Positions 113 to 62,065 are shown, numbered from the stretch's first letter. The stretch is 64,000 nucleotides of DNA from Oscillibacter sp. (GCA_014799925.1 JAAVHC010000001.1:30998-94997), one strand, 5' to 3'. A program made the numbers and translations. Notes: generated by a model from the sequence alone, not told the origin.

Positions 113-2653
113 ATGAAACGACCTGAAAAAAGAAGGGCGGCCCTGCTGGCGGCGGCGTGCCTGCTGCTGGGCTTGCTGGCGGGCTGCGGAAAGAAGAACG
201 ACGCCCAGCAGCTCTCCGCCAACGTTTATGTACCCCGATACCTGGATCTGGACCTGGATCTGGACTATGTCCGGAGCGGATGCACCGACGGGGAGAATCT
301 TTACATCATAGGTCAGACCGGCCGGGAGACCACGGAGACCGACCCCATCTCCGGGGAGACCTATACCAACTGGACCTATTCCTATGACATCTACCGGATT
401 TCCCTGGACAAAGGGGAGGCGGAGAAGCTGCCCGGCTATGAGGGCCCGTCCATCCCCGAGGGGAGGAGCGGCGACGCTTACATAGAGGATATCAGCATCG
501 CCGCGGATGGCACCCTCTGGGTCAAGGAAGTGACCTACATCTGGGGATACTCGGATATCAAGTATCCGGAGCTGGACGGGGATTTTGGAGTGGACTGGGC
601 GGAGCCGGCGGAGGCTGAGGCGGACGATGACGGCGGCGCGGAGGCCCTTGACGAAGCGGCGGATATGGACATTGTCGTGGAGGAACCCGTCTATTATGAG
701 AACGAGGAGATCGTTGTCCGCCGTCATCTGGACGCCCAGGGAAACGAGCTGGAGCAGATGGACCTCTCCGGTCTGGAGGAGGCTCTGGCGGACGTGCTGG
801 AGGACGCTTACATCCGCAGTACCGTCTTTGACAGGGACGGCAACCTCTACGCGATGACCGGCGACAAAATTTATGTCCTGGATTCCCAGCTGAACGTGAA
901 ATTCGCCGTGGAGGGGCAGGACATGTGGTATGACCTGATCCAGCTCGGCGACGGCACCATGGGGATGCGGCAGTGGGAATACGACGAAGCGTCCGAGACC
1001 AGCATCAACAAGCTGCGGACCATCGACCCGGAGAAGCAGGACTGGGGGACGGAATACCTGCTGCCCACCAATGTATACAGCTTCTATCCCGGCGGCGGGG
1101 AATACCTCTTCTACTATCAGGTCAACGACTCCGTCATGGGCTTTAAGGCCGGAGAGCCGGACGGGGACGGCGCCGGCACGGGGGAGGGGGAGCGTCTCTT
1201 CTCCTGGGTGGAGGCGGATATCAACCGGGACAATATGCGCTCCTTCTTCTTCCTGCCCGACGGCCGGATCGCGGCCATTCTCCAGGAGTGGGACGAAAAC
1301 TATGAGAAGTCGCAGAACAGCGTGGTTGTCCTGACCTCCACCCCCAGAGACCAGCTGCCGGAAAAGACCACGCTGGTCTACGCCACCCTGTACCTGAACT
1401 ATGGGGCCCGGAATCAGATCATTGATTTCAATAAAAAGAGCGACAGCTACCGCATCGAGGTCAGGGATTACGCGGAATACGATACGGACAGCACCGGCAG
1501 CGCGGCGCTGCAAAAGCTGAATACCGAGATCCTGGCCGGTTCGGTGCCGGACATTCTGGACACCACCAGCCTGCCCATCCGGCAGTACGGCGCCAGGGGC
1601 ATTCTGGAGGACCTGTGGCCCTTCATCGAGAAGGACCCGGATCTGGGCCGGGACGCGCTGATGACCCGTCCGCTGGAGGCCAACGAGCAGGACGGCAAGC
1701 TCTATGAGATTTTCAGCAACTTCTCCATCCGGTCGGTGGCCGGTCCCGCCGGGGCGGTGGGCGACCGGATGAGCTGGACCCTGGCGGACCTCCGGGCGGC
1801 CCTGGAGCAGATGCCGGAGGGGTGCTCCATTTTCGGCGTCAGCAGTACCCGTGACTATATGCTCAACACGATTCTGGCGCAGAATATGGACCAGTTTGTG
1901 GACTGGAGCACCGGCAAATGCTCCTTTGACAGCGACGAATTCAAGGCGCTGCTGTCCTTCTGCGCTGAGTTCCCCGCCGAATTCAGCTGGGAGAACGTGG
2001 ACTGGGACGAGTGGGAGGATGAGGAGGCCCGCATCCTTCGCGGCAAGCAGATGCTGATGGAAACCTATGTCAGCGGGCTGGACTGGACGATCCAGTACCT
2101 CGCCGCCATTTTCAGGAACGACTATTCCTTCATCGGCTTCCCCAAGGAGGATGGGAGCGTGGGCAGCAGCTTCACATACTCGCGGGGCATAGCCATGACC
2201 TCCTCCTGCAGGGACAAGGAGGGCGCGTGGTCCTTCCTCCGCCAGACGTTGCTTCCACAGACCGAGGGCGGGGAGCGGTATTACGGCAGCTTCCCCATCA
2301 ATAAGTACGATTTTGACAAGCTGGTGGACCAGGCGCTGAACCCGCCTGAGTATGAGCTGGACAGCGAGGGCAACCCCTACCTGGACGAGGAGGGCAACCC
2401 CATTCCCGTGGAGTACGGCAGCTTCTGGATTGACGACGGGACCGAGATTCCTCTCTCCGCGCCCACGAAGGAGGATGTCGACAAGGTGCTGGCGCTGTAC
2501 GAGGCCGTGAGCGCCATCAACCGCTATGATGAGAAGATTTATAATTCCGTCCAGGAGGTGGCGGGCCAGTTCTTTGCCGGCGACAAGCCTCTGGACGACG
2601 CGGCCAAGCTGATTCAGAGCAAGGTGTCCCTGTACGTCAACGAGAGCCGGTAA
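113..2653 (+). CDS. Large (~846 aa) lipoprotein: beta-propeller-like N-terminal half fused to a family-1-type extracellular solute-binding domain (paralog 1 of 3)
   Basis: ORF 92..2653. The ATG at 113 lies 6 nt after GAGGAGGAG. Signal peptide with lipobox LLAGC. The C-terminal half carries SBP-like motifs (EILAGSVPDILD, ILEDLWPF). 46 of 74 residues are identical to the next gene over one hand-aligned stretch. Confidence 0.8.
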   Translation: MKRPEKRRAALLAAACLLLGLLAGCGKKNDAQQLSANVYVPRYLDLDLDLDYVRSGCTDGENLYIIGQTGRETTETDPISGETYTNWTYSYDIYRISLDKGEAEKLPGYEGPSIPEGRSGDAYIEDISIAADGTLWVKEVTYIWGYSDIKYPELDGDFGVDWAEPAEAEADDDGGAEALDEAADMDIVVEEPVYYENEEIVVRRHLDAQGNELEQMDLSGLEEALADVLEDAYIRSTVFDRDGNLYAMTGDKIYVLDSQLNVKFAVEGQDMWYDLIQLGDGTMGMRQWEYDEASETSINKLRTIDPEKQDWGTEYLLPTNVYSFYPGGGEYLFYYQVNDSVMGFKAGEPDGDGAGTGEGERLFSWVEADINRDNMRSFFFLPDGRIAAILQEWDENYEKSQNSVVVLTSTPRDQLPEKTTLVYATLYLNYGARNQIIDFNKKSDSYRIEVRDYAEYDTDSTGSAALQKLNTEILAGSVPDILDTTSLPIRQYGARGILEDLWPFIEKDPDLGRDALMTRPLEANEQDGKLYEIFSNFSIRSVAGPAGAVGDRMSWTLADLRAALEQMPEGCSIFGVSSTRDYMLNTILAQNMDQFVDWSTGKCSFDSDEFKALLSFCAEFPAEFSWENVDWDEWEDEEARILRGKQMLMETYVSGLDWTIQYLAAIFRNDYSFIGFPKEDGSVGSSFTYSRGIAMTSSCRDKEGAWSFLRQTLLPQTEGGERYYGSFPINKYDFDKLVDQALNPPEYELDSEGNPYLDEEGNPIPVEYGSFWIDDGTEIPLSAPTKEDVDKVLALYEAVSAINRYDEKIYNSVQEVAGQFFAGDKPLDDAAKLIQSKVSLYVNESR

Positions 2654-2770: not shown

Positions 2771-5320
2771 ATGGATAGAACAAAAAAACGGGTCGCGGCG
2801 CTGCTGCTGGCCCTGAGTATGCTGCTGGCTCTGAGCGCCTGCGGAAAGAGCCAGGACAAGGACGGCGCGCAGCTTTCCGGCACGGTGTATGTGCCTCAGT
2901 TTATGGACCTGAACCTGGACGTGGGGAAGCAGTATGACATTGACGGCGGATGTACGGACGGGACAAATGTCTACCTGCTGGTGGACATATACCCCGACTG
3001 GGAAAACGGGGAGGTGGGGGATGCCCGCTGCGCCATCATCCGCATCCCCCTGGATGGCGGAGAGCCGGAGGAGCTGGAGAATTTCCAGCCCGCCGCGGCC
3101 CCGGAGGGCTACAGCGAATCCAGCGTCTATTGCAGAGGCCTCCGTGCCGGCGCGGACGGGTCATTGTGGGTGGAAGAGAGCATATACGCCTATTCCTATA
3201 ACCTGCCGGAAGATTTTGACCCGGAGACGGACTATGCCTCGAACTATGAATTGCTGGACAGAGTCAACCTGGAGTATCAGGTCCAGCTGGATTCCACCGG
3301 CAGTGAAATCACCAGCATAGACGTCAGTAACCTGCGGGAAAAGGCGGAGGTGGAGTATCTTTACTCCGACGGGGTCCTGATTGACAGGGAAGGGGACTTG
3401 TTTGTCAGCAGCGACGGTAAGATCGTGGTGCTGGATTCCTCCATGAACATCCGTTTCACGGTGGAGGACGAGAGCCTGTGGGGCGACAGCCTGGTGCTGC
3501 TGTCGGACGGCAATGTGGGGGCCCTGGTGACGGTCAGAGATCCCGCCAACAACACTTACTCCCGCCAGGTGCGCGCCGTTGACAAGTCCGCCCGGAAGTG
3601 GGGAGAGTCCTATGAGATGCCTCAGAACGCCTATGAGATCTATTCCGGCGGCGGGGACTATCTGTTCTACTATAAGATCGGTGAGACCCTGTACGGCTTC
3701 AAGGCCGACGTGGAAGAGGGGGCCGACCCCGGCGAGCGGCTGCTGAGCTGGCTGGAGGCTGACATCGACTCGGACACCATCGTATTTTTCTCCTTCCTCG
3801 CCGATGGCCGTGTGGCGGTCATGACCCGCTCCTGGCGCGGCAACGGCGGTCCGGAGGTCAACCTGGCCACTCTGACCGCGATGGACCGTTCAGAGCTGCC
3901 GGAGAAGGTGACCCTGACTTACGCCACCATGAACCTGGGTCAGGATGAGCGCCTGCGGATCCTGAATTTCAATAAGAACAGCACGACCCACCGCATCGAG
4001 GTGACGGATTACTCCGAGTATGCCACGGAGGAGGACTACATGGCCGGCATCACCAAGCTGAACGCCGAGATCCTGGCCGGCACGGTGCCCGATATGATGA
4101 ATGTCGACAATCTGCCTATCCGGCAGTATGGAGCCAAGGGGATACTGGAGGACCTGTGGCCCTTCATTGACGGCGACGCGGAAATTGGCCGGGAAAAACT
4201 GATGGACCGGGTGTTTACCGCTGCGGAGCAGGATGGAAAGCTGTATCAGGTGTTCAACAGCTTCTCTATCCAGACCATCATCGGCGCCACCGATGTGGTG
4301 GGCGAGGATATGGGCTGGACCATAGCGGAGTTCCGGGAGGCGCTGGCCTCCATGCCGGAGGGCTGCACCGTCTTCGGCGAGGACAGTACCAAAAGCGAAA
4401 TGCTCACGGCCCTGCTCAGCCAGAATCTGGGCAGCTTTGTGAACTGGGAGACCGGGAAGTGCAGCTTTGACAGCGACAGCTTCAAGTCTGTCCTTGCCTT
4501 CTGCGACACCTTCCCCATGGACTTCGATTATACCAACTACGAGTACAGCGACAGCAACAGCGTACCCGCCCGCATTGCCGACGGCCGGCAGATGCTGAAC
4601 CAGACCTCACTGTACGATTTCCGGAGCATCCAGATGCACGAGGCCATGTTCGGCGGCACGGATGCCCTCCAGCATCTCTATCTGAACGAAAGCTATGGCC
4701 CCGACGGATATACGGTGGAGGTCTCGGAGGTGCCCGTGGTGAACGAATGGGGCGGCACCAATGAGTCCAACCGCCTGATTCCAGGCCGCTACATAACCTT
4801 CAAGGGCTATCCCATGGAGGACGGCGGCTGCGGCAGCGCGTTCAATATCGGCGACGGCGTGGCCATGTCCAGCGTCTGCAAGGATAAGGAGGCCGCCTGG
4901 TCCTTCATGCGCCAGCTTCTTCTGCCGATGTCGGATGATTCCTCCTCCTATTACTACTGGGGCTTCCCCGTCAACAGGGAGGATTTTGAGAAGCAGGCCC
5001 AGGAGGCGATGAAGGTGGAGTACCTCACCGACAGCGAGGGCAACCAGGTGCTGGACCTGGACGGCAACCCCATTCAGCGGAGTAAAGGCGGCTGGGGCTG
5101 GGGCACGCTGGATATTGACACCCAGGCCACCACCCAGAACGAGTATGAGCAGATTCTGGAGCTGTACAACGCCGTTGATTCTGTCTACAGCTACGATACG
5201 AAGATTTTTGAGATTGTCACGGAGGTGGCGGGCAGCTACTTTGCCGGCGACAAGCCTCTGGACGACGCGGCCAGTCTGATTCAGAACAAGGTAAATACCT
5301 ATGTCAATGAAAACCGTTAA
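2771..5320 (+). CDS. Large (~849 aa) lipoprotein: beta-propeller-like N-terminal half fused to a solute-binding domain (paralog 2 of 3)
   Basis: ORF 2720..5320. The ATG at 2771 is preceded by AAGGAGGA. Lipobox LSAC. Same architecture and same C-terminal signature (YFAGDKPLDDAASLIQNKVNTYVNENR) as the upstream gene. Confidence 0.8.
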   Translation: MDRTKKRVAALLLALSMLLALSACGKSQDKDGAQLSGTVYVPQFMDLNLDVGKQYDIDGGCTDGTNVYLLVDIYPDWENGEVGDARCAIIRIPLDGGEPEELENFQPAAAPEGYSESSVYCRGLRAGADGSLWVEESIYAYSYNLPEDFDPETDYASNYELLDRVNLEYQVQLDSTGSEITSIDVSNLREKAEVEYLYSDGVLIDREGDLFVSSDGKIVVLDSSMNIRFTVEDESLWGDSLVLLSDGNVGALVTVRDPANNTYSRQVRAVDKSARKWGESYEMPQNAYEIYSGGGDYLFYYKIGETLYGFKADVEEGADPGERLLSWLEADIDSDTIVFFSFLADGRVAVMTRSWRGNGGPEVNLATLTAMDRSELPEKVTLTYATMNLGQDERLRILNFNKNSTTHRIEVTDYSEYATEEDYMAGITKLNAEILAGTVPDMMNVDNLPIRQYGAKGILEDLWPFIDGDAEIGREKLMDRVFTAAEQDGKLYQVFNSFSIQTIIGATDVVGEDMGWTIAEFREALASMPEGCTVFGEDSTKSEMLTALLSQNLGSFVNWETGKCSFDSDSFKSVLAFCDTFPMDFDYTNYEYSDSNSVPARIADGRQMLNQTSLYDFRSIQMHEAMFGGTDALQHLYLNESYGPDGYTVEVSEVPVVNEWGGTNESNRLIPGRYITFKGYPMEDGGCGSAFNIGDGVAMSSVCKDKEAAWSFMRQLLLPMSDDSSSYYYWGFPVNREDFEKQAQEAMKVEYLTDSEGNQVLDLDGNPIQRSKGGWGWGTLDIDTQATTQNEYEQILELYNAVDSVYSYDTKIFEIVTEVAGSYFAGDKPLDDAASLIQNKVNTYVNENR

Positions 5321-6260
5321 GGAAAAGAAAATCAGGAAGTCCAGGCCTCCCAGAGCGAAAAAGGCCGGGAAGGTCCGGAGGGCATGGAACCGGGGCAACG
5401 ACCATATCCGGGACGTTATGCACTCCGTGGCCTTCCTGACCCCCAGCGTAACGGGTGTGGCGGTGTTTTTCATCCTGCCGTTTCTGGTGGTGGTGTATTA
5501 CTCCGTCATCCGCTCGCCCATGAATCCGGAATTCGTGTTTCTGGATAATTTCATCGCGGTCCTGAAAAACTCCTCCTTCCGCACCGCCGCCAAAAACACC
5601 GCTATGTTCTCAGCCATAGCGGTGCCTTTGGCCGTTGTGCTCAGTCTGGTCCTGGCGCTGATGCTGGAGTGCCGCATCCCCTGCAAAAGCCTGCTGCGCA
5701 CCTTTTTCCTCAGTCCCATGATGGTGCCGGTGGCGTCGGTGGTGCTGATCTGGCAGGTGGTGTTCCACTACCGGGGGACGCTGAACGTCGTCCTGGCCAA
5801 CTTTGGCGTGGACCCGGTGGACTGGATCAACAGCTCCGGCTGCCTGATGGTGATCGTGGTGCTGTTTTTGTGGAAGAACCTGGGATACAACATGATCCTT
5901 TTTATGGCGGCGCTGAACAATATCCCCAAGGAGCTGCTGGAGGTGGCGGACGTAGAGGGAGCGTCGGCGGCCCACAAGTTTTTCAACATCAAGCTCCGCT
6001 ATCTGTCCCCCACGGTGCTGTTCGTGGCGATTCTCTCCATTATCAATTCCTTCAAGGTATTCCGGGAGATCTACCTGCTGACGGGGGACTATCCCTTTGA
6101 CGGACTGTACATGATGCAGCACTTCATGAACAATACCTTCAACAACCTGGATTATCAGAAGATGTCCTCGGCGGCGGTGCTGATGGCGCTGGTGATGGTG
6201 GCGCTGATCGCGCTTCTGTTCAAGGTGGAGGATATCTTCGGAAAGGATGTGGAGGGGTGA
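5301..6260 (+). CDS. ABC importer permease, MalF/UgpA/LplB-like (binding-protein-dependent type)
   Basis: Multi-TM protein with an EAA-type loop (LLEVADVEGASAAHKFFNIKLRYLSP). Overlaps the stop of the preceding SBP gene. Confidence 0.85.
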   Translation: MSMKTVKEKKIRKSRPPRAKKAGKVRRAWNRGNDHIRDVMHSVAFLTPSVTGVAVFFILPFLVVVYYSVIRSPMNPEFVFLDNFIAVLKNSSFRTAAKNTAMFSAIAVPLAVVLSLVLALMLECRIPCKSLLRTFFLSPMMVPVASVVLIWQVVFHYRGTLNVVLANFGVDPVDWINSSGCLMVIVVLFLWKNLGYNMILFMAALNNIPKELLEVADVEGASAAHKFFNIKLRYLSPTVLFVAILSIINSFKVFREIYLLTGDYPFDGLYMMQHFMNNTFNNLDYQKMSSAAVLMALVMVALIALLFKVEDIFGKDVEG

Positions 6261-7144
6261 GGAAGAAACACTACTTCGGGCGCTTCGCCCTGACGGTGCT
6301 GGCGGTATTTTTCGCGCTGTGGTTCCTGCTGCCCACGGTGCTGACCATCACCAACTCCTTCATGACCCAGTCGGAGATCAGCTCCAACTACGGCAAGGTT
6401 TTTGCCAACGTCTCCGGCAGCGACGGCAAGGCGTATATCGCCGACACCGTCAACCTGAAATTCATTCCGGACAAGGTGACGTTCAACCAGTATATTTCCG
6501 TGCTGATCCGCAGCCCGGAGTATCTGCTGAAATTCTGGAACTCGGTGATCCTGGTGGTTCCCATCGTGCTGCTGCAGCTGGTGGTGGCCTCCATCACGGC
6601 CTACGGCTTCACCCGGTGGCGGGGGAAGGTGAGGTCCTTCCTGTTTTTCTTCTATGTGATATTGATGCTGATGCCCACACAGGTGACTCTGGTGCCCAAT
6701 TATCTGGTCAGCGACTGGGTGGGGATCCTGAACACCCGGTGGTCCATTATCCTGCCGGGAACCTTCGCGCCGTTCTCGGTATTCCTGCTGACCAAGTCCA
6801 TGCGCCGCATTCCCGCCTCGCTGATTGAGGCGGCGAAGCTGGACGGTTCCAGCGAGTGGCAGATTTTCAAGGACATCTGTCTGCCCCAGTGCCGCAGCGC
6901 CCTGTACTCGATCGCCATTCTGGTGTTCATTGATTACTGGAACATGGTGGAGCAGCCCATCGTCCTGCTGCCCAACGCGGATTTGCAGCCGCTGAGCGTC
7001 TATCTGTCCACCATCAATTCCAGGGAGGTCGGTCTGGCCTTCGCTATCGCCACCATTTATATGGTGCCTTCCCTGCTGCTGTTCCTCCACGGGGAGGACT
7101 ATCTGGTGGAGGGGATTGCCCACCAGGGGTCGGTAAAGGGATGA
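6257..7144 (+). CDS. ABC importer permease, MalG/UgpE/LplC-like
   Basis: GTG start overlapping the upstream TGA (GTGA). EAA-type loop LIEAAKLDGSSEWQIFKDICLP. Six predicted TM segments. Confidence 0.85.
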   Translation: MRKKHYFGRFALTVLAVFFALWFLLPTVLTITNSFMTQSEISSNYGKVFANVSGSDGKAYIADTVNLKFIPDKVTFNQYISVLIRSPEYLLKFWNSVILVVPIVLLQLVVASITAYGFTRWRGKVRSFLFFFYVILMLMPTQVTLVPNYLVSDWVGILNTRWSIILPGTFAPFSVFLLTKSMRRIPASLIEAAKLDGSSEWQIFKDICLPQCRSALYSIAILVFIDYWNMVEQPIVLLPNADLQPLSVYLSTINSREVGLAFAIATIYMVPSLLLFLHGEDYLVEGIAHQGSVKG

Positions 7145-7212
7145 GGCGGCCGGCGGCGGCCCGGGCAATTATTGGCCGGCAGGTCCAATGGCGCGGGCCT
7201 CTGCGGCCAGGC

Positions 7213-7296
7213 ATTGCTTCCGAATTGAGCTTGGAAGTAATATTGCCATGTTTTGCGGCTGCCGCCCCCGGCGGCGGGCAAAACGGCTCAAATCAA
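7213..7296 (+). repeat. Two-hairpin interspersed repeat, family 1, copy 1
   Basis: ATTGCTTCCGA..TTGGAAGTAAT hairpin, then GTTTTGCGGC..(GC-rich sub-hairpin)..GCAAAACGGCT. Near-identical modules occur at 22146..22236 and 57139..57207. Confidence 0.8.
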
Positions 7297-7357
7297 GCTT
7301 CATTATCCCTGCGGCTTTACACAGGAATAATGAAATCCTCCTGAAAGGAAAAAGATT

Positions 7358-9460
7358 ATGGAAGTAAAAGAAAAGTCCAAGAAAAGGGAATTGATCAAGA
7401 CCATCGCCATCGTTTTTCTGGCGGTGCTGCTGGTGCTGACCTTTTTTTCCGGGACCATTATGAATTACTCCCTGCCCGAGGTGGCCACCCAGCTGGTTTC
7501 CTCCGGCACCATCAACGCCAAGATCCGCGGCAGCGGTACTGTGGCCGCCAACGAGAGCTATGAGGTTGTTATCCAGCAGACCCGCGAGATTCGCTCCGTG
7601 TGCCTGGGGGTGGGCCAGGAGGTTCAGGCGGGCGATTTGCTGTTCGTGTTGGGCGACATTGAGAGCCAGGAGCTTCGCAGTGCGCAGGAGGCCCTGGCGA
7701 ACGCGAAAATGGCCTACGAGAGGCGGAGACTGGAGCTGGCCAAGAGCTATGAGTCCGACGACCAGAATCTGAAAATCATCCGGGAGGATCTGGAGGAGGT
7801 CTACGCCAGGCGGGACGCCAACTATGTCACGGACGAGGAGGTGTCCTACGCCAAGGGCGACCTGGCTGCCGCGAAGAGCGAGCTGGACCGTCTTCAGTTT
7901 GAGCTGAAGGAGCTGAACGCCCTCCAGTCCGACAGCGAGGAATACGCCAACGCCAAGGCGAAGGTGACGGAGCTGGAGAGCAGGATCAAGAGCCTGGATG
8001 CCGCGATTGAGGAGTATGAGGCACAGCTGGAGAAGCTGGAGAGCGGGGAAGACGTAGCTGCGAGCCGGAGAATTGAGGACGCGGAAGCGGCGTTGAGCAA
8101 AGCGGAAAATGAGCAAAGAAGCAGCTGGATGGCGTATATAGATGATTTAAATGCATTGATTCGGAGAATGAATACCAATAATGGCGATGGCCTGTCCCAT
8201 TATATTGGCAGGGTCAGGGAAATCACGACGTCATCCCCGTCAGAGATTGACGCAAGCGACCAGATGTATATTGAGGCATATTTGACGGAATGGGAAAAAA
8301 ATAATCAGATTGCGTCCGGAGAAGACAAGGACGGCAATCCGATTTACAGTACGGACGCGACCTATCTTACATGTAAAACGGCATACAATGTTTTAATCAA
8401 AGCACAGGAAGATGTCGAGGAAAAAGCAGCGGCTCTGGATCGTCTTGTGAAAGACCAGAACATCTCCTCTGGCGATGCTCGCCAGCAGCGCCAGGCCATT
8501 CAGAACAAGCTGGACGAGGCCGAGTTTAACCGCAGGGGCGTCCAGTGGGACCTGAGCGTCGCTCAGACGGAGCTGGAGGCCGCCTCCAACGCCGACGACC
8601 AGTTGAAGCAGCTGATCCGCAGCAACGAGGCCAACCAGCGGCAGAAGGAGGCGGAGATCAGCACGCTTCAGGATAACCTGACCACGCTCCAGGAGAAGCA
8701 GACCATCTATAAGACGGCTGTGGAGACCGCCGGCGCAAAGGAACGGGAGCTGGAGCAGGCCCTGTCCGGCAAGAACATTGACAAGCAGCTCAACAACCTG
8801 GACCTCCAGTCCATGAGCATGGACATTCAGAAATACCAGGAGCAGGTGGATAAATATACCAAGGACTCCGTGGACACGGAGATCACATCCCCCGTCACCG
8901 GCGTGATCACCGCGATCAACGTCACCGCCGGCAAGGAGACCACGCCGGGTCAGGCCATGGCCGTGATCGACGTGGTGGACCGGGGCTATACCATCAAGGT
9001 CTCCGTCACCAATGAGCAGGCCAAACAGGTCAAGGTGGGCGACACTGCCGAGGTGACCAACTACTATTGGGGCAGCAGCGTTGCCGCAACCCTGGAGCAG
9101 ATCGTTTCCGATCCCTCCAGCATGGGCCAGAAAAAGACGCTGGTCTTCCGGCTCACCGGGGATGTCTCGGCGGGGGATAACCTTTCCCTCTCCATCGGCC
9201 AGCGCAGCGCCAACTTTGACACCATTGTGCCGAAAAGCGCTCTGCGGGAGGATGCCAACGGGAAGTTTGTCCTGGTGGTCACCAGTAAGAACACCCCCCT
9301 GGGCAACCGGTACACGGCGACCCGCGCCGACGTGCAGGTGCTGGCGGAGGACGATACCAGCGCCGCCGTTTCCGGCCTCGCGGCCAATGATTACGTGATT
9401 ACCACCGCCAGCAAGCCGATTTCTCCCGGCAGCCAGGTGAGGATGGTGGAGAACCCCTAG
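7358..9460 (+). CDS. HlyD/MFP-family periplasmic-adaptor-like protein with N-terminal TM anchor and unusually long coiled coil (700 aa)
   Basis: N-terminal TM. Split lipoyl/barrel-sandwich motifs (GTINAKIRGSGTV...GDLLFVL and ITSPVTGVITAINVTAGKETTPGQAMAVI). Beta-barrel C-terminus. About 400 aa of heptad-like E/K/A/L/Q-rich sequence lies between them. RBS GAAAGGAAAAAG. Confidence 0.75.
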   Translation: MEVKEKSKKRELIKTIAIVFLAVLLVLTFFSGTIMNYSLPEVATQLVSSGTINAKIRGSGTVAANESYEVVIQQTREIRSVCLGVGQEVQAGDLLFVLGDIESQELRSAQEALANAKMAYERRRLELAKSYESDDQNLKIIREDLEEVYARRDANYVTDEEVSYAKGDLAAAKSELDRLQFELKELNALQSDSEEYANAKAKVTELESRIKSLDAAIEEYEAQLEKLESGEDVAASRRIEDAEAALSKAENEQRSSWMAYIDDLNALIRRMNTNNGDGLSHYIGRVREITTSSPSEIDASDQMYIEAYLTEWEKNNQIASGEDKDGNPIYSTDATYLTCKTAYNVLIKAQEDVEEKAAALDRLVKDQNISSGDARQQRQAIQNKLDEAEFNRRGVQWDLSVAQTELEAASNADDQLKQLIRSNEANQRQKEAEISTLQDNLTTLQEKQTIYKTAVETAGAKERELEQALSGKNIDKQLNNLDLQSMSMDIQKYQEQVDKYTKDSVDTEITSPVTGVITAINVTAGKETTPGQAMAVIDVVDRGYTIKVSVTNEQAKQVKVGDTAEVTNYYWGSSVAATLEQIVSDPSSMGQKKTLVFRLTGDVSAGDNLSLSIGQRSANFDTIVPKSALREDANGKFVLVVTSKNTPLGNRYTATRADVQVLAEDDTSAAVSGLAANDYVITTASKPISPGSQVRMVENP

Positions 9461-9535
9461 TGGGCCAAATCCGCTCTTTGTGCGGTGGATATCCAGGCCT
9501 GCCGCACGGCAGCGGGCAAATGATGGGAGAATAGC

Positions 9536-10648
9536 ATGAGAAAATTCTTTCAACGCATGAAAGATGCGATCAAAGCCTTCGGCTTCAAGCAGTGGTTTCT
9601 GCTGATATTGAACATCGTGCTGGCCCTGGGGGCCGTTGGCTGTGCCGCGGGGGTGAGCCGGATCAGCGGCACGCTGACTTCGCTCACCGCGGCAAGCCGC
9701 TTCCAGGGGACGGGAGAGGGCCGCTTCGCACAGCTGGCCTGCTATCTGCCGGTGGACGACGGCAAGACGGAGGATGACATCCGCGCCTTCCGCCGGGACC
9801 TGGAGAACAAGGTGGTGGAGCAGTCCCTGGAGGCTCAGGAAGGGGGACGGCTGTACCTGGACGGATACAGCGGCGCCGCCACGCTGACCGTCAGATCGGA
9901 CAACGGCGGCAGCGCGGCGGTGAAGGCAGTCGGCGTAGGGGGAGATTTCTTCTATTTCCACCCTCTGCTCCTTCGGGGAGGGGCCTATATCAAAGAAGAT
10001 GACCTGATGGACGATCTGGTGGTGCTGGATGAAGAGATGGCCTGGAGGCTCTTCGGCGGCGTGGACCTGGCGGGATTGACGGTGTATCTGAACGGCGAGC
10101 CCTTTGTGGTTGCCGGGGTCGTTGCCAGGGAGACGGACTTTGCCACCAACCGGGCCTATACCGGCGATGGCGGCTTGTATATGTCCTTCTCCGCCATGAG
10201 CCGGCTGAATGAGAGCGCCGAGATTACCTGCTATGAGATCGTCATGCCCAACCCCATTACCGGTTACGCCGAGGGGATGCTGAAGGACGTCTTCCCGATT
10301 GGGGAAGGGGACATCGTGGAGAATTCCAGCCGGTACAGCCTTACCCACCTCTGGGAGGTCATTCAGAACTTCGGGCAGCGGTCCATGCGGAACAATGGCG
10401 TGATCTATCCCTATTGGGAGAACGCCGCCCGGCTGACGGAGGATTACGCGGCGCTGCTGGCGGTGCTGGTGGTGCTGCTGTCCCTGTGCCCGCTGACCTT
10501 TGTGATCGTACTGGGTATTCGCGATATCCGGCGGGCCTACCGCTTCGCCAAGGTCAGGATTCCGGAGAAGGTGGACGAGGCGGTGGAGAAGCACCGGGAG
10601 GTGCGGCTGGAAAAAGCCTATAAGAAAAAGCAGGAGGGTGAGGACTGA
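9536..10648 (+). CDS. Half-FtsX/MacB-like membrane protein: TM1, MacB_PCD-like extracytoplasmic domain, TM2, short basic tail; no FtsX TM3-TM4 bundle
   Basis: PCD-like motif VGVGGDFFYFHPLLLRGGAYIKEDDL..VVLDEEMAWRLFGGVDLAGLTVYLNGEPFVVAGVV. Only two hydrophobic segments (about residues 20-40 and 306-330). The stop overlaps the ATG of the next gene. Confidence 0.6.
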   Translation: MRKFFQRMKDAIKAFGFKQWFLLILNIVLALGAVGCAAGVSRISGTLTSLTAASRFQGTGEGRFAQLACYLPVDDGKTEDDIRAFRRDLENKVVEQSLEAQEGGRLYLDGYSGAATLTVRSDNGGSAAVKAVGVGGDFFYFHPLLLRGGAYIKEDDLMDDLVVLDEEMAWRLFGGVDLAGLTVYLNGEPFVVAGVVARETDFATNRAYTGDGGLYMSFSAMSRLNESAEITCYEIVMPNPITGYAEGMLKDVFPIGEGDIVENSSRYSLTHLWEVIQNFGQRSMRNNGVIYPYWENAARLTEDYAALLAVLVVLLSLCPLTFVIVLGIRDIRRAYRFAKVRIPEKVDEAVEKHREVRLEKAYKKKQEGED

Positions 10649-11931
10649 TGGCGGATCTGAGCCTGCGTAAGGTAAAAAAAGTATATGACAATACGGTAGT
10701 GGCGGTGCAGGCGTTCGATCTGGAGATCGCCGACAAGGAGTTCATCGTGCTGGTAGGCCCTTCCGGCTGTGGAAAGTCTACAACGCTGCGGATGGTAGCG
10801 GGACTGGAGGAGATTACCGACGGGGAGATTTACATCGGCGGCCGGAAGGTGAACACCGTATCCCCCAAGGACCGGGACATCGCCATGGTGTTCCAGAACT
10901 ACGCCCTGTATCCCCATATGACCGTCTACGACAACATTGCCTACGGCCTGAAGCTGCGGAAGTTCCCCAAACGGGTGATTGACCAGAAGGTCCGGGAGGC
11001 GGCGGAGATCCTGGACATTACGGAGCTCCTCAAGCGGAAGCCAAAGGCCCTCTCCGGCGGCCAGCGCCAGCGCGTGGCCATTGGCCGGGCCATTGTCCGG
11101 GAGCCCCAGGTGTTCCTCATGGACGAACCCCTCAGCAATCTGGATGCCAAGCTGCGCAACCAGATGCGCTCGGAGATCATCAAGCTGCGCCAGAAGGTGA
11201 ACACCACCTTCATCTACGTTACCCACGACCAGACGGAGGCCATGACCCTGGGGGACCGGATCGTCATCATGCGTGACGGCTTTGTCCAGCAGGTGGGCAC
11301 CCCGCAGGAGGTGTTCCATCATCCGGCCAACCTGTTCGTGGCGGGCTTCATCGGCACGCCGCAGATGAACATTTTTGACGCCCGGCTGGTCCGGGAGGGC
11401 GAACGGTACTTTGTGGCGGTGGGAGAGGGCGCGGCGGCCCACACCGTGGAGCTGTCGCCGGAGAAGCAGGCCCGCCTGCGTGCCTGCGGCGTGGAGTCCC
11501 AGCCGGTGAAGCTGGGACTGCGGCCCGAACACCTGACCCTCACAGAGTCGGACGACGCCGTCTACGCGGCGGTGGACGTGTCGGAGATGATGGGCAGCGC
11601 GGTGCATATCCACGTCAGCGCCTGCGGTCAGGATGTGGTCATCGTGGTGCCCCTCAGCGAGGAGGAGGACGGGGAGGCCCTGCCCATGGGCACGCCGGTG
11701 CGCTTCACCTTCCGGGGCAGCGCCGCCCATGTTTTCGACGTGGAGACCGGACGGAACCTGGAGTATCCCATTGCCCGGGAGTCCGAACCGGAGGCCCCCG
11801 CCGGGGAGGAACAGGGCCCTGCGGAGAAACCCGCCGCTCCCACGGAGGAAGCGCCCCCTGCGCCGGAGGGAATCCCGGAGCGGGAGACGCTGGACGATCC
11901 CTTCGCGGAGGACGACGGCCAGGAGGGATAA
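10648..11931 (+). CDS. MalK/MsmX/UgpC-type sugar ABC transporter ATP-binding protein with acidic, proline-rich C-terminal extension
   Basis: Walker A GPSGCGKST, LSGGQRQR signature, Walker B FLMDEPLSNLD, and a MalK-type regulatory C-domain. The last ~55 aa are low-complexity E/P/A-rich. Confidence 0.9.
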   Translation: MADLSLRKVKKVYDNTVVAVQAFDLEIADKEFIVLVGPSGCGKSTTLRMVAGLEEITDGEIYIGGRKVNTVSPKDRDIAMVFQNYALYPHMTVYDNIAYGLKLRKFPKRVIDQKVREAAEILDITELLKRKPKALSGGQRQRVAIGRAIVREPQVFLMDEPLSNLDAKLRNQMRSEIIKLRQKVNTTFIYVTHDQTEAMTLGDRIVIMRDGFVQQVGTPQEVFHHPANLFVAGFIGTPQMNIFDARLVREGERYFVAVGEGAAAHTVELSPEKQARLRACGVESQPVKLGLRPEHLTLTESDDAVYAAVDVSEMMGSAVHIHVSACGQDVVIVVPLSEEEDGEALPMGTPVRFTFRGSAAHVFDVETGRNLEYPIARESEPEAPAGEEQGPAEKPAAPTEEAPPAPEGIPERETLDDPFAEDDGQEG

Positions 11932-11982
11932 GCTGTAAGCTGTACATTAAAAAAGGGGACGTAAGGCTATGGAGAGTTATTA

Positions 11983-13362
11983 ATGAAAGGAAAATCCTGT
12001 CTGTTTCTGACGGTCCTCTGTCTCCTGCTGGCCCTCACCGCCTGCCAGGATACGACCAACCCCAGCCCCGAATCTGTGGACCCCGTCCCGGAGGTCACAG
12101 AGCCGGAGACGCCCGATCCCGCCCCCGTGGAAGAGCCGGAGGAGGAACCGGAGTCTGAACGATCCCAGCGGGAGCAGGACTGGATAACCGACTTGAACTA
12201 TCTGAGCCAAACCTACAAATCGGTCCACAAGGACCCTTTCTACCTTGTCTCGGAGGAAGAATTTGACTGGAAAATCGAGCGGCTGAAGGCGAAGGTGGGC
12301 CAGCTGTCCGACGAGGATATGTATTTTGAGATTGCGGCCTTGGTGGCCGGAATGGGCGACATCCATACCTTTGTCAACGCACCCCAAAGCTTGTATGACC
12401 GGCAGTTTCCGATCGGCACCCAACACTTCGGAGATAAATTATATTTAACGTTTTACTTGGAGGGCTATGAGCAGTTTGCGCCCTACCTGCTCCATGAGAT
12501 CGTGGCCGTGAACGGCATAGATATCACCTATCTTGAACAGAAAGCGGCGTCTCTTAATAACCCGTTCAGTTACTGGTACAGCAAAGAGAATTTTTGGCTT
12601 AATCCAATAGCGTTTCTTGACTGGGCAGGCTGTGATTACAAAGAGGGCTATACCATCGAGTTCCTGAACGACAACTGTGAGGTCGAGTCCGTTGAGGTTC
12701 CTGTGATAACCCCTGCGGTCATGCAGAGCGGGTCTCGTGTGCGCCATGAAAACTGGGACCAGCTTCTTTTCAAGAAATACGGAAACCAGGCGGAATATGT
12801 TTACGGTGAAAACGGCGGCCTTGTCTATCTGTCCCTTTCCAGTCTGTATGATGCTTCATCGATTACGGAGCCTTTTGAAGCGGCAATCGAGCTGATCAAG
12901 TCACATCCGGACTGCGGCAAATTGGTCCTCGACCTTCGCTCGCTCCCCGGTGGGATGGATGTCATGCTTGTATGGGTCAGAGCATATGTGCAGGATCTGA
13001 AAGACCTCTCCATTGGGAAGGTCTATGTTGCCGCCGGCGGTTATTCCGCATCCGCTGCAATCAGCTGCCTTGCTTCTTTCAAGAATGATCTGGGCGCGGT
13101 GATCATCGGTGAGCCTACAGGGCAGTTCACATCTTTTTTTGCCGGTACGCCTGGGGTGTACGTTCTCCCCAATTCCCAGATATCCGTTCATATTGCGCAC
13201 TTTTGGTATGAGGCAGGAACCATCGGCGAGGAGTACTACGACGAGGACGGCAAGCTCTACCCATGGGAGAGTACCATCCTCCCGGACGTGTATGTCTACC
13301 AGGACATTGAGGACATCCGCCAGGGGAAGGACAGCGTGCTTGAGTGGGTCCTGGCACAGTAA
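11983..13362 (+). CDS. Lipoprotein with S41 (C-terminal processing/tricorn-core type) peptidase-like domain
   Basis: Lipobox LTAC. Motifs LVLDLRSLPGG and GGYSASAAIS..IIGEPTGQ resemble the S41 catalytic region. RBS GGAGAG. Confidence 0.55.
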   Translation: MKGKSCLFLTVLCLLLALTACQDTTNPSPESVDPVPEVTEPETPDPAPVEEPEEEPESERSQREQDWITDLNYLSQTYKSVHKDPFYLVSEEEFDWKIERLKAKVGQLSDEDMYFEIAALVAGMGDIHTFVNAPQSLYDRQFPIGTQHFGDKLYLTFYLEGYEQFAPYLLHEIVAVNGIDITYLEQKAASLNNPFSYWYSKENFWLNPIAFLDWAGCDYKEGYTIEFLNDNCEVESVEVPVITPAVMQSGSRVRHENWDQLLFKKYGNQAEYVYGENGGLVYLSLSSLYDASSITEPFEAAIELIKSHPDCGKLVLDLRSLPGGMDVMLVWVRAYVQDLKDLSIGKVYVAAGGYSASAAISCLASFKNDLGAVIIGEPTGQFTSFFAGTPGVYVLPNSQISVHIAHFWYEAGTIGEEYYDEDGKLYPWESTILPDVYVYQDIEDIRQGKDSVLEWVLAQ

Positions 13363-13389: not shown

Positions 13390-14064
13390 GTGCTCAAGCA
13401 CTATTTGAAAGTGTTTGCCGTGGCGGTCTGCTTCGGGATCGTACTGGCCGTTTTAAAGGAAAGGCTGGCTATTGACAGCACGCTGTTCTGGCAATGGTAT
13501 GTGGCTGCCGCCGCAGTCATCATCGTGGGCGCGATTGCGTTCAATATCCTGTACGCAAGGCGTTATGGGAAGAGGATGCAGGAGCTGGTCCCGCTTCTGG
13601 AGAACGGCCAGCCCGCGGCGTACCTTGCCGGCCTGGAGGAGCTCCTTGCAACTGTGAAGACCCGCGGCCTGCGGGATATGCTGCGGCTGAACCTGTCGGC
13701 GGGCTACTGCGAGCTGGACCGCTACGAGGAGGCAATCGCTGTTCTGGAGAGCTTGAAATTTGGCGGCAGCCGCGTCCCGGAGATGGTGCGCCGGCTCAAT
13801 CTGTGCGTGTGCTTGTTCCATACCGGACGGACTGCGGAAGCCATGGAGCTGTACCGCGCAAGCGAAAAGTGGTTCGCGCCCTACCGTGAGAAGGAGCCTT
13901 ACGGCGGCAATATCGCCGTGCTGGATATACACGCCGCAATGGTGGAGGGCCGCTACACGGAGGCCCGCGCTCTGCTGGACCACACCCGGAAGACCTGGGA
14001 CAGGCCCCGTCTGCAGAAATACTACGACCAGCTGGAGCAGCTGATGAAGGATAATAAACTATAA
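13390..14064 (+). CDS. Membrane-anchored TPR-like repeat protein (hypothetical)
   Basis: GTG start after AGGGGG. Two N-terminal hydrophobic segments followed by TPR-like helices (YCELDRYEEAIAVLESL). Confidence 0.5.
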   Translation: MLKHYLKVFAVAVCFGIVLAVLKERLAIDSTLFWQWYVAAAAVIIVGAIAFNILYARRYGKRMQELVPLLENGQPAAYLAGLEELLATVKTRGLRDMLRLNLSAGYCELDRYEEAIAVLESLKFGGSRVPEMVRRLNLCVCLFHTGRTAEAMELYRASEKWFAPYREKEPYGGNIAVLDIHAAMVEGRYTEARALLDHTRKTWDRPRLQKYYDQLEQLMKDNKL

Positions 14065-59356: not shown

Positions 59357-62065
59357 ATGAAAATTGGAATCAGCCGTATCACGGCGGCTCTGCTCGTGCT
59401 GGCGCTGGCGCTTGGCCTGACGGGGTGCGGTAAGGACGGAGAGCAGAAAAAGGCGGACCTGGTGTTCCCATCCTCGCTCTACTACGCGGTGGAGGAGATG
59501 CCGCAGCCGGTGGAGAGCGGGGAGCTGGCAGGGTGCTGCACCGACAGGGAAAGCATCTGGTATCTGGTGATCCCCGAGGAGGACGCTGAACCGGTTCTCT
59601 GCCGCGTACCCCTGGACGGCGGGGAGGCGGAGGTCCTGACGGAGTATCAGGCGCCGATGGCGGACGGCCAGCCTGCTGTTGGCTATGTAGGCCCCATTGT
59701 GGGCGGAGACGGTACGCTGTGGGTCTGGGAGCAGTTTTTTGTCCCCGGAACGGAAACGAGCCAGTTCTCTCACACATTTCACATGCGCCAGCTGGACCCG
59801 GCTACCGGCAGGGAGCTGAGCGTGACGGACATCACCGCCGCTATGGACGGCATGAACCTGCAGACGCTGAACGGTATCGTGGTGGACGGGGAAGGGACCA
59901 TCTTCCTGGCGGACCAGAAGCACATAGCCGCCATCGACAGCCAGGGGCAGACCCTGTATACCTTGAAGGCAAAGCTGCCCGGCACATTCTTCTCCTCCGG
60001 TGCGGGAGGAAGCCTGGCCCTGCTGCCTGACGGGACCATCGGGGTCCTCACGGTTCAGTCCAAGGATGAGCGGACGGTGCAGATCATCGACCGGGAAACA
60101 AGGGATTGGACCAAGCAGGAATACTCCATACATAAAGAGGTGAACCGGATTTACCCTGGCAGCGGCGCCTGCGCGTTCTACTATATCTCGGGCGGCATTG
60201 TCTACGGCATCGCCCCCGGGGAGGATATCCCCCTGCGGCTGCTGTCCTGGTCCAGCGCCCAGCTGGATGAGTCCGACGCGGTGCGGTGCTTCGCCCTCCT
60301 GGACGACGGGCAGGCCGCGGCCCTGTCCAGCATCCACACGCCCGGTACGGGCTGGTATGACGACACGGTCCAGGCCGTGCGGCTCCTGCCCACGGATGAG
60401 CCTCCGGCGGGGATGAAGGTAAGGCTGGTCTACGGCGCCATCGGCACCAACTTCCTTACTCAGGAAAAGATTGCGAAGTACAATCGGGGAAATAAGAACT
60501 ACTACATCGAATACCGGGACTACTCCGAGGGACTGCTGGGCTGGACCGGCGAGAAAAATACGCAGGTCTATCAGAACGCGCTGGCCCGGCTGTACGCGGA
60601 TATCGCCGCGGGACGCTGCCCCGACATCCTGGACGAGTCCCTTCCGCTGGACACGCTGGCCAGGCAGGGCGCGCTGGAGGACCTGTGGCCCTGGATCGAC
60701 GGTGATCCGGCCATCAGCCGGGAGGGGCTGATGGCCCATGTGCTGGAGTGCCTGGAGGTAGACGGGAAGCTGCCCCGGGTGTGCGCCGGCTTCGAGATCG
60801 AGACCGCCGTGGCCAGCGCGGCCGTGGCGGGGGACCGGGCGGGCTGGACCATGGAGGAGATGCTGGATGCCTTCGGCGGCGAGACGCCGGAATTCTATTT
60901 TGCGCTGAATAACGATCTTAGTCTGATATACACGATGTTCTACCGGTTTGACCGGCAGACCACCCTGTATGATCTGGTCAATATGAACCTGAGCCGCTTT
61001 GTCAATATGGAGACCGGTGAGTGCGCCTTTGACAGCGAGGATTTCAAGTCCCTGCTGCGGCTGGCCGGCAGCGGAGAGGATGTGGCGGAAACCAGCCTGA
61101 ATCTGGATGATCCCTATGTGCTGCGTGATCTGGGAATCAGCGGACAGGATGCGTCGGTACTGAGCGGCATTGAGCCGTGCCGGGTGTTCCCTTGGGAGGG
61201 TAGGCCCCTCCTTTGCGCACGGACGCTGGCGGACGCCAAGGACCTGGTGGTCGACGACGTGCTGTTCGGCGGCCGGGAGTCCCTGACGGCGGACTATGAC
61301 CAGCGGCTCTGGGACGCGGAGATTATTTACAGCTTCATAAACAACAATGATGTCGAACTCATCAGGACGCGTTATGACAAGGACTTTAACCAGGTGTACT
61401 GGGCGCATGAGAATGGGTTCGAGCCGATCCAGTACCTTCGGAGTGGATTTAGCGATACACCTTTAGCCGGTGACTATCAGGTCGGCGCGGCGGACGGAAA
61501 CGTCTACGCCTCCTATGTAGGGTTCCCCACATCCAGCGGCGCGGGCAGCAGCTTTACCATTCGCCAGGGCATGGGCATCTCCGCTTCCAGCGGGGCGAAG
61601 GAGGGGGCGTGGGCCTTTGTGCGCGGCCAGCTGCTTCCCAACGGCAACGCCAGCGGATACTGGGTGGCCACAGGCGAGCCTTCCAACTTTGACGGCTTTC
61701 CCATCAACCGGGAGACTTTTGACGCGCGGATGCGGATCGGGATGGAATACTGGACCGACCCATACAGCGGGGAGGTTTTCACGGACGCCAACGGGGACCC
61801 GGTGGAATTCACACCCGCCGGAATCGGCGTCGGCAAACCCGGGGACGTCGTCCTGATGGCCTACCTCTTCGCCCCCAGCGAGGCCCAGATGGAGCGGTTC
61901 TGGAGGCTCTACGAGTCCACGGAGCAGATCACCGGCAGAAACGACGCCATACTGGACATCGTCATGGAGCAGGCGGACGCGTACTTCGCCGGGGACAAGA
62001 GCCTGGAGGAGACCGTCCAGCTGATCCAGAACCGGGCGAGTCTGTACGTCAATGAGCACCGGTAA
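59357..62065 (+). CDS. Large (902 aa) lipoprotein: beta-propeller-like N-terminal half fused to a solute-binding domain (paralog 3 of 3, no adjacent transporter genes)
   Basis: Lipobox LTGC. RBS AAAGGAGGA. Shares motif order with the 113 and 2771 genes (CTD..., DGTLWVW, ALEDLWPWIDGDP, AYFAGDKSLEETVQLIQNRASLYVNEHR). Confidence 0.8.
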   Translation: MKIGISRITAALLVLALALGLTGCGKDGEQKKADLVFPSSLYYAVEEMPQPVESGELAGCCTDRESIWYLVIPEEDAEPVLCRVPLDGGEAEVLTEYQAPMADGQPAVGYVGPIVGGDGTLWVWEQFFVPGTETSQFSHTFHMRQLDPATGRELSVTDITAAMDGMNLQTLNGIVVDGEGTIFLADQKHIAAIDSQGQTLYTLKAKLPGTFFSSGAGGSLALLPDGTIGVLTVQSKDERTVQIIDRETRDWTKQEYSIHKEVNRIYPGSGACAFYYISGGIVYGIAPGEDIPLRLLSWSSAQLDESDAVRCFALLDDGQAAALSSIHTPGTGWYDDTVQAVRLLPTDEPPAGMKVRLVYGAIGTNFLTQEKIAKYNRGNKNYYIEYRDYSEGLLGWTGEKNTQVYQNALARLYADIAAGRCPDILDESLPLDTLARQGALEDLWPWIDGDPAISREGLMAHVLECLEVDGKLPRVCAGFEIETAVASAAVAGDRAGWTMEEMLDAFGGETPEFYFALNNDLSLIYTMFYRFDRQTTLYDLVNMNLSRFVNMETGECAFDSEDFKSLLRLAGSGEDVAETSLNLDDPYVLRDLGISGQDASVLSGIEPCRVFPWEGRPLLCARTLADAKDLVVDDVLFGGRESLTADYDQRLWDAEIIYSFINNNDVELIRTRYDKDFNQVYWAHENGFEPIQYLRSGFSDTPLAGDYQVGAADGNVYASYVGFPTSSGAGSSFTIRQGMGISASSGAKEGAWAFVRGQLLPNGNASGYWVATGEPSNFDGFPINRETFDARMRIGMEYWTDPYSGEVFTDANGDPVEFTPAGIGVGKPGDVVLMAYLFAPSEAQMERFWRLYESTEQITGRNDAILDIVMEQADAYFAGDKSLEETVQLIQNRASLYVNEHR

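Follow-up and report, generated by a model that had tools for sequence, protein, structure and literature searches.

The window considered here, a stretch of 64,000 nucleotides from Oscillibacter sp. (GCA_014799925.1 JAAVHC010000001.1:30998-94997), carries near its first letter seven co-directional + strand genes, which encode two substrate-binding proteins (SBP1 and SBP2), two permeases (PermF and PermG), a membrane-anchored adaptor of the membrane fusion protein (MFP) type, a 370 amino acid (aa) protein with a MacB-type periplasmic core domain (PCD), and an ATPase of the ATP-binding cassette (ABC) class; a spacer of 213 bp separates the PermG and adaptor genes. The best supported reading, to which as a whole we give a probability of about one half, is that the seven genes form one operon for a carbohydrate ABC importer of the CUT1 class (type I, resembling MalFGK2 and UgpAEC), in which the adaptor and the PCD protein, called here half-FtsX, act as accessory subunits in the envelope. 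The conserved genetic module is well supported, and the mechanism and substrate proposed for it are hypothetical. An accessory role was among the possibilities raised in a preliminary description of this DNA, and it is favoured because of the synteny of 66/66 testable loci, the presence of the module in Lachnospiraceae, the overlapping or very short gene junctions and a natural in-frame fusion of the PCD protein to a binding protein. The importer core also speaks for it, being standard in its EAA loops, its UgpC-type ATPase and the similarity of its binding proteins to those for sugars.

The boundaries given below are those of the open reading frames (ORFs) on the + strand within positions 1-12000 of the window, the gene calls being taken from the identical contig L005; the last line lies outside this region.

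113..2653, + strand: SBP1, giant lipoprotein binding protein, 846 aa by the gene call, the ORF being open from 92
2771..5320, + strand: SBP2, giant lipoprotein binding protein, 849 aa by the gene call, the ORF being open from 2720
5301..6260, + strand: PermF, MalF/UgpA-like permease with an EAA-like loop, 319 aa, BPD_transp_1
6257..7144, + strand: PermG, MalG/UgpE-like permease with a canonical EAA loop, 295 aa, BPD_transp_1
7145..7357: spacer between PermG and the adaptor, 213 bp, with a palindromic repeat of the REP-like (repetitive extragenic palindromic) kind inside
7358..9460, + strand: membrane-anchored MFP/adaptor, 700 aa
9536..10648, + strand: half-FtsX, the PCD protein, 370 aa, MacB_PCD
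10648..11931, + strand: UgpC/MalK-type ATPase, 427 aa, its start overlapping the stop of the PCD gene
11743..11928, + strand: ATPase C-terminal extension, ~62 aa, acidic and proline-rich, with DDPFAED as its end motif
59357..62065, + strand: orphan third giant binding-protein paralogue with the lipobox LTGC, 902 aa, 29% identical to SBP2

The gene order, the spacer length, the products of 700, 370 and 427 aa and the overlap of stop and start had all been read correctly in the preliminary description. In the window the adaptor and PCD genes are 75 bp apart, and the PCD stop and the ATPase start meet in the sequence TGATG, with a GGAGG/GAGG ribosome-binding site within the 3' end of the upstream gene. 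Across the compared loci the junctions were found to be tight, with medians of -4 bp (an ATGA overlap) from adaptor to PCD, 2 bp from PCD to ATPase and 31.5 bp from PermG to adaptor; the adaptor-to-PCD gap is <=30 bp in 80/86 junctions.

The 213 bp spacer of the window is a lineage-specific expansion by the REP-like repeat. This palindromic intergenic repeat, whose core is TTTTGCGGCTGCCGCC...GGCGGCGAGCAAAACGGCT, is present in three copies in the window (~7215-7300, 22162-22247 and 57142-57227), the first of them within the spacer; in relatives the spacers measure ~10-35 bp, and the long spacers of other species contain unrelated hairpins. Promoter and terminator matches in the spacer were no better than those in shuffled sequence, no conserved promoter was evident there, and a search of it against Rfam gave no family match. 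Given these results and the repeat itself, a separate transcription unit starting in the spacer is unsupported.

The evidence that carries the argument comes from other genomes. A scan of one genome per species revealed 463 stretches encoding a relative of half-FtsX (matches to the PCD protein itself), from which 80 loci were kept; where their titles name a family or genus, it is Oscillospiraceae or a relative, with a few Ruminococcaceae or candidate genera, and the remaining titles give Clostridia, Clostridiales or Firmicutes only. The neighbourhoods of 84 loci from other Oscillospiraceae genomes were then compared with the seven window proteins, the denominators being the loci with enough sequence. 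PermF, PermG and the adaptor were found directly 5' of the PCD gene in 66/66 loci, and a giant SBP was present in 55/56. The ATPase gene adjoins the PCD gene in 53/72 loci and is absent from 19/72, in which the cluster stops at the PCD gene and unrelated genes come next. Two loci carry two tandem adaptor paralogues (~600 aa and 431 aa) before the PCD gene (L072, 2960-6190; L079, 6731-9936), and both belong to these 19. Since the arrangement recurs in dozens of genomes in which the flanking genes vary from locus to locus, it is far beyond chance.

Four Lachnospiraceae loci (L087-L090) were also sampled, with the order SBP(s), PermF, PermG, adaptor, PCD, SBP and then a gene for a Cache_3-Cache_2/GGDEF diguanylate cyclase, which lies just 3' of the module in 4/4. 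The SBP-PermF-PermG-adaptor-PCD order is kept in 3/4 of them, and an adjacent ATPase gene was found in none of the four. One locus encodes a natural in-frame PCD::giant-SBP fusion (P0364; L087, 10001-13270), the only fused representative seen, which runs from TM1 (the first transmembrane, TM, helix) through the PCD, TM2 and a short basic loop into an intact SBP signal-anchor and the giant SBP, an order that is topologically consistent. The fusion has dispensed with the usual tail after TM2, and in its sister loci L088-L090 the PCD protein and the SBP are encoded by separate adjoining genes.

The invariant unit is therefore the giant SBP, PermF, PermG, the adaptor and the PCD protein, the ATPase being frequent and not obligatory, because its gene is adjacent in only 53/72 Oscillospiraceae and 0/4 Lachnospiraceae loci. 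In the preliminary description the adaptor, half-FtsX and ATPase were treated as a trio whose conservation should be surveyed: the first two proved to be neighbours in every case, and the third is linked to them in most loci and not in all. The emphasis placed there on attachment to the ATPase was thus misplaced, as the invariant link is with the permeases and the giant binding proteins.

The 370 aa protein matches PF12704 (MacB_PCD) in Pfam with an E-value of 3.9e-9 and 37.5 bits (cutoff 27), and gave no match to PF02687 (FtsX) even at E<=10, both results having been predicted beforehand; NCBIfam returned weak ADOP and MacB matches only. A hydropathy scan showed just two TM segments (22-40 and 308-326); the architecture consists of an elbow-like helix, TM1, the MacB-type PCD, TM2 and a conserved charged cytoplasmic helix of ~40 aa. 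The layout proposed earlier, TM-PCD-TM with TM3-TM4 missing, holds; its tail is to be corrected from ~45 to ~40 aa, with a net charge of ~+4. The AlphaFold2 model (predicted local distance difference test, pLDDT, 74.7; predicted template modelling score, pTM, 0.67) comprises a short N-terminal helix, TM1 with a stalk helix (17-50), an alpha/beta domain (64-282) and, at its end, one continuous helix (293-367) made up of stalk, TM2 and cytoplasmic helix. Foldseek comparison with the PDB gave 28 matches at E<=0.001 (the top 28), all of them PCDs of MacB, Spr0694/0695, YbbP, YknZ and LolC/E, and a sequence profile search of the PDB gave MacB periplasmic domains only (E 1e-6).

The hallmark of a type VII permease, a PCD inserted between TM1 and TM2, was thus recognized in the 370 aa protein by Pfam, Foldseek and hydropathy. 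The four-TM FtsX domain is lacking (no PF02687 match, two hydrophobic segments, a single terminal helix), as is a cognate ATPase of the MacB/LolD/FtsE type, the sole ATPase of the cluster being of the UgpC/MalK type, and because of these two absences the protein stands outside the type VII permease family in the strict sense. A conserved split-off gene for a two-TM (TM3-TM4) partner was not seen in the compared loci. The best conserved stretches of the protein are FGFKQWF before TM1, the stalk PYWENAARLTEDYAA before TM2 (conservation 0.94) and the proximal tail (0.83). The helix after TM2, which lies where MacB has its major coupling helix, is conserved within clades and differs in sequence between them.

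It had been foreseen that the 370 aa gene might be a truncated pseudogene of a full-length FtsX permease in close relatives, and the outcome was negative. The 120 best homologues are all 315-406 aa long, and nearly all carry PF12704 alone (two had no precomputed domain). An exhaustive profile search of 1.84 billion cluster representatives (50% identity clusters) assigned 1168 clusters to the family at E<=1e-3, of which 593 also passed E<=1e-30; nearly every one has 330-400 aa, and the very large families of canonical FtsX and MacB proteins stayed outside. When the search was started from a low-GC member instead, 1697 further proteins were added, several named Lachnospiraceae or Suilimivivens, of which the best 120 measure 330-396 aa and again nearly all have PF12704 alone (three without a precomputed domain). 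This uniformity of length, ~330-400 aa, rules out a pseudogene, and the sequences place the 370 aa protein in a real, large and ancient family of two-TM PCD proteins.

For the 700 aa adaptor, the predicted matches to HlyD_D23 (36.6 bits, cutoff 30) and HlyD_3 (35.6 bits, cutoff 22.2) were both found, together with Biotin_lipoyl_2, all within residues 444-602; the NCBIfam model TIGR01730 (RND_mfp) gave 62.3 bits, below its cutoff of 94.9. One TM segment (12-30) was found in the hydropathy scan. The protein consists of an invariant basic cytoplasmic N-terminus, a TM helix, a split lipoyl domain, two helical arms, and beta-barrel and membrane-proximal domains; its Foldseek neighbours include TMexC, AcrA, BesA, Spr0693, ZneB and MacA, plus long coiled coils, and its relatives carry the Pfam domains of YknX-type subdomains. 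With anchor, split lipoyl domain, beta-barrel and membrane-proximal domains all present, it is a bona fide MFP. The alpha-helical hairpin expected between the lipoyl halves is also present, with arms of unusual length, ~170 aa each (104-271 and 334-503, pLDDT mostly 80-95), around an insert (272-333). Because the AlphaFold2 model of the adaptor is poor overall (pLDDT 65, pTM 0.33) and unsuited to geometry, only its secondary structure and domain-level Foldseek matches were used. If the arms form one antiparallel hairpin, its length could be up to ~25 nm, an upper bound calculated from 170 residues at 1.5 Å each.

The conservation of the adaptor falls outwards from the membrane: it is 1.00 in the cytoplasmic N-terminus, 0.95 in the TM helix, ~0.9 in the lipoyl domain, 0.90 in the barrel and membrane-proximal domains, 0.75 in the coiled coils and 0.36 in the hypervariable tip. 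The N-terminus, TM helix and juxtamembrane region (e.g. KKREWVK..AAIIFL...LTFFSNTIMNYSLPEVATQ) are near-identical between Oscillospiraceae and Lachnospiraceae, two orders of Clostridia. In Gram-negative adaptors the tip is conserved for channel docking. The gradient found here points to an adaptor with a tightly constrained membrane partner and a free, exposed distal end.

SBP1 and SBP2 are giant lipoproteins of 846-849 aa with the lipoboxes LLAGC and LSAC, respectively, and share 40% identity. SBP1 has no Pfam or NCBIfam match of its own, and NCBIfam gave none for either; SBP2 reaches 23 bits against SBP_bac_1 over residues 417-731 (cutoff 26), and matches the sugar SBPs Lmo0181, YesO and CbpC in the PDB by sequence over residues 431-592. 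Orthologues of the giant proteins match SBP_bac_8 and SBP_bac_1. These matches and the lipoprotein signals identify binding proteins of the sugar class, as in CUT1 importers, with an atypical N-terminal half: ahead of the SBP fold each has an N-terminal domain of ~380 aa without family assignment, which is invariant in the binding proteins of the module. About six 'DG.L..' repeats were read by eye in this half of each protein (window 113-1300 and 2771-3950), and the domain gave a sub-threshold match to the Reg_prop propeller only (E 0.015); it may be a beta-propeller. The orphan 902 aa paralogue is 29% identical to SBP2 over its full length and has no adjoining permease gene; it probably serves the transporter of the module as an additional substrate receptor. 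It lies between a MurJ/MATE-like gene and a following ribosome-hibernation-factor-like gene, as judged by eye without a domain search.

Both permeases match BPD_transp_1 (PermF 58.4 bits, PermG 54.6 bits, cutoff 26.4), and the best NCBIfam similarity of PermF is to UgpA. The canonical EAA loop of PermG was located by pattern at residue 191 (EAAKLDGSSEWQIFKDICLP); the pattern search matched PermG alone, and the corresponding EAA-like stretch of PermF, EVADVEGAS, was recognized by eye only. With this reservation for PermF, the pair has the two EAA loops of a CUT1 importer. Across loci the identity is 61-94% for PermF and 71-96% for PermG, the most conserved gene of the cluster. The ATPase contains ABC_tran, OB_MalK and TOBE_2, and scores 482.5 bits against the NCBIfam model UgpC (cutoff 432); it is a MalK/UgpC-type ATPase with the C-terminal regulatory domain usual in CUT1 importers, as had been proposed. 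Its C-terminal extension (residues ~366-427) has a net charge of ~-15. A terminal [DN]PF motif (GDPF[ATS]E) occurs in 37/52 cluster-linked ATPases, and the ATPases of another clade end in basic, hydrophobic motifs resembling GFHLLRKKK.

If the adaptor and half-FtsX are accessory subunits, the following assembly may be proposed. Two envelope subunits that descend from type VII machines like MacAB and YknXYZ would have become permanent parts of an importer whose core comprises the giant lipoprotein SBPs, the two permeases with EAA loops and the UgpC/MalK-type ATPase. One of the two, half-FtsX, would have kept TM1, the PCD and TM2 and lost TM3-TM4 and its own ATPase. The PCD protein would be the membrane platform on which the membrane-proximal domains of the adaptor are seated, as the PCD of MacB is for MacA, and its two TM helices, together with the very conserved TM helix of the adaptor, would pack against the permease pair in a physical complex. 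An adaptor oligomer, of whatever state, could project a stalk or tube of up to ~25 nm into or through the wall zone, as conduit or scaffold, and so give the membrane-tethered giant SBPs and the permease a guided path to large glycans, the presumed class of substrate.

Several points weigh against such an importer. We know of no precedent for an adaptor serving one, and if the adaptor formed a closed MacA-like hexamer over a PCD dimer, the access of the SBP to the permease would be left unexplained. The complex and the uptake role are deduced from gene context and predicted folds; the models are moderate (PCD protein, pLDDT 74.7) to poor (adaptor, pLDDT 65), and the figure of 25 nm is an upper bound derived from helix lengths. 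In L090, at a contig end, a DUF4143 gene and not the permeases lies directly 5' of the adaptor gene. No cultured strain was noted among the relatives seen, the source names shown being metagenome-assembled or uncultured.

A more far-reaching proposal, which we consider doubtful, is a hybrid of ABC types I and VII, in which the ATP-driven motions of the ATPase and permeases would be passed on to the PCD and the wall-spanning adaptor tube of ~25 nm, thereby coupling import cycles mechanically to the capture of large glycans or their feeding through the wall. ATPase cycles might then move the PCD by way of the two-TM protein, either through its helix after TM2 or through TM-TM contact. If true, it would be the first case in which the MFP/PCD apparatus of mechanotransmission serves import.

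It also appears rather unlikely that the ATPase is shared, driving a dimer of the two-TM PCD protein through the post-TM2 helix as a stand-in for the coupling helix of MacB; the PCD protein and the adaptor would then be a minimal type VII-like mechanotransducer, co-expressed with the importer and physically separate from its complex. The 370 aa protein indeed retains the exact mechanotransmission path of MacB, from the elbow helix through TM1, the PCD with a stalk on either side, and TM2 to the cytoplasmic helix; its pre-TM2 stalk and proximal tail are its best conserved parts, the tail being under selection, and the start of the ATPase overlaps the PCD stop. Moreover, the GDPF[ATS]E motif of the ATPase extension is accompanied by the motif IPEKV in the PCD tail in 36/37 loci, compared with 1/15 loci without the ATPase motif; both traits, however, map to essentially one clade and one phylogenetic transition, and the co-occurrence is therefore a lead and not independent evidence. 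Against a shared ATPase, its gene is missing from 19/72 Oscillospiraceae and 4/4 Lachnospiraceae loci, whereas the permeases are present in 66/66 and 3/4; the tail sequences differ between clades, and the natural PCD::SBP fusion has lost the tail. The grooves of UgpC/MalK-type ATPases fit EAA loops and, as both permeases supply one (that of PermF recognized by eye), both grooves would be occupied, which weakens the idea of coupling through the tail. The mimicry of the MacB coupling helix suggested in the preliminary description is thereby weakened, though still conceivable: a conserved helix does occupy the MacB position, but it is clade-specific, it is absent from the fusion, the ATPase is not always linked and its grooves would be filled by the EAA loops.

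Less probable still is a regulatory or sensing module, in which the adaptor and the PCD protein would inform the importer, or a signalling partner, of the extracytoplasmic state (e.g. that of the wall or the presence of a substrate polymer) without forming a substrate path, in the manner of effector control by FtsEX-type systems or flux sensing by BceAB. FtsX PCDs bind long coiled-coil partners, among them EnvC, PcsB and CwlO, without transport; the Cache-GGDEF gene follows the module in 4/4 Lachnospiraceae loci, and the cytoplasmic tails have clade-specific terminal motifs (e.g. KHYVRTGI). On the other hand, effectors such as hydrolases or kinases are lacking from the Oscillospiraceae clusters, as is the Cache-GGDEF neighbour, and the adaptor has complete barrel and membrane-proximal domains of the MFP kind, which are typical of adaptors that form channels. 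The last reading offered in the preliminary description, that an unrelated efflux-type unit and an importer operon lie side by side by chance, has in its favour only that MFP and PCD proteins would, a priori, be looked for in exporters, and is hardly credible, being refuted by the synteny (66/66, and the same module in the Lachnospiraceae, hence in two orders), with overlapping reading frames, an in-frame PCD::SBP fusion and a module without either FtsX domain or MacB-type ATPase adding to the case.

Some features of the surroundings of the cluster may be mentioned. A lipoprotein of 459 aa with a weak Peptidase_S41 match is encoded downstream (11983-13362, + strand) and is not kept with the module in other loci. 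It is followed by the gene of a two-TM TPR protein of 224 aa (13390-14064, + strand); a TPR gene also directly follows the ATPase gene in L020. As this gene recurs only in L020 and in same-species loci, it is unsuitable as a candidate for a split-off TM3-TM4 partner of half-FtsX. The + strand ORF at 14092-15681 is spurious, the real gene there being of the MatE family on the - strand (14119-15549, gene call from the identical contig), and several further long antisense ORFs, e.g. 8393-10594 on the - strand, are artefacts too in a window of 60% GC. A Band_7/flotillin gene lies immediately 5' of SBP1 in L005, from the species of the window, and in its relative L001, whose PCD protein is 74% identical to that of the window; it is not found in L003.

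The carriers of the module, Oscillospiraceae and Lachnospiraceae, are dominant fibre- and mucin-degrading commensals of the gut. The module is a concrete candidate for the passage of large glycans across the thick wall of single-membrane bacteria to membrane-anchored SBPs. If the adaptor and half-FtsX do serve the importer, they would add a new ABC architecture, in which a type I importer has acquired accessory subunits of type VII origin, and would indicate that a PCD can persist over long evolution without the FtsX bundle or a dedicated ATPase; half-FtsX would also offer a natural minimal system for studies of the interaction between PCD and adaptor. The two proteins are at present annotated as 'HlyD family efflux transporter periplasmic adaptor subunit' and 'ABC transporter permease', and because of these names the genes are likely miscounted as efflux or resistance genes in microbiome surveys. 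The arrangement had been noted in the preliminary description as not known to be described, and in a full-text search of the literature, which covered open-access papers only, no description of an importer/adaptor/PCD arrangement and no experiments on uptake by it were found; reviews of type VII ABC transporters were retrieved.

The closest relatives of the two envelope subunits are found in MacAB(-TolC), YknXYZ and Spr0693-0694-0695, which share with the module an adaptor that is anchored by a TM helix and combines an alpha-hairpin with lipoyl, beta-barrel and membrane-proximal domains. In MacB an elbow helix leads into TM1, the PCD is carried on stalks between TM1 and TM2, and a cytoplasmic helix follows; the N-terminus and TM region of MacA and Spr0693 are needed to stimulate the ATPase, and the homologues covered in a review of the MacB family all have four TM helices and are paired with their own ATPases (PMC5985334). 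As in MacAB and YknXYZ, the PCD of the module (Porter/Sabre fold) is held on stalks between two TM helices, the adaptor gene directly adjoins the PCD gene, and the N-terminus and TM helix of the adaptor are conserved. Unlike these systems, the module has neither a TM3-TM4/FtsX domain nor an ATPase of the MacB/LolD/FtsE type, and, unlike in MacAB, the genes of its pair lie within a type I importer cluster, after those of the permeases and before that of the ATPase. Its helical arms of ~170 aa are several times longer than those of MacA, and its hairpin tip is hypervariable and not conserved for docking to an outer-membrane channel.

With CUT1 importers (MalEFGK2, UgpBAEC and the MsmX-powered systems of Firmicutes) the module has in common two BPD_transp_1 permeases with EAA-type loops (in PermF by eye), an ATPase of the UgpC/MalK type that carries the regulatory domains OB and TOBE, and lipoprotein SBPs of the sugar class; as in the MsmX-powered systems, its ATPase gene is sometimes unlinked. 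In contrast to them it has two extra membrane subunits, SBPs of twice the normal size with the unassigned ~380 aa N-terminal domain, and an ATPase often provided with an acidic extension and a terminal GDPFAE motif.

FtsEX with EnvC, PcsB, CwlO or RipC resembles the module in pairing a PCD-type extracytoplasmic domain with a long coiled-coil protein; there the action takes place outside the membrane, without any transport. FtsX differs in having four TM helices and its own ATPase, FtsE, and its partners carry or control hydrolase domains, whereas here the partner is a bona fide MFP and no hydrolase belongs to the conserved module. The P0364 fusion recalls GlnPQ and OpuA in tethering a binding protein to a membrane subunit by way of an extra TM helix, but in those importers the substrate-binding domain is fused to the translocating permease, and in P0364 the SBP is fused to the accessory two-TM PCD protein. 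On this comparison the module would most resemble an importer of the MalFGK2 type to which the extracytoplasmic half of a MacAB or YknXYZ machine has been added.

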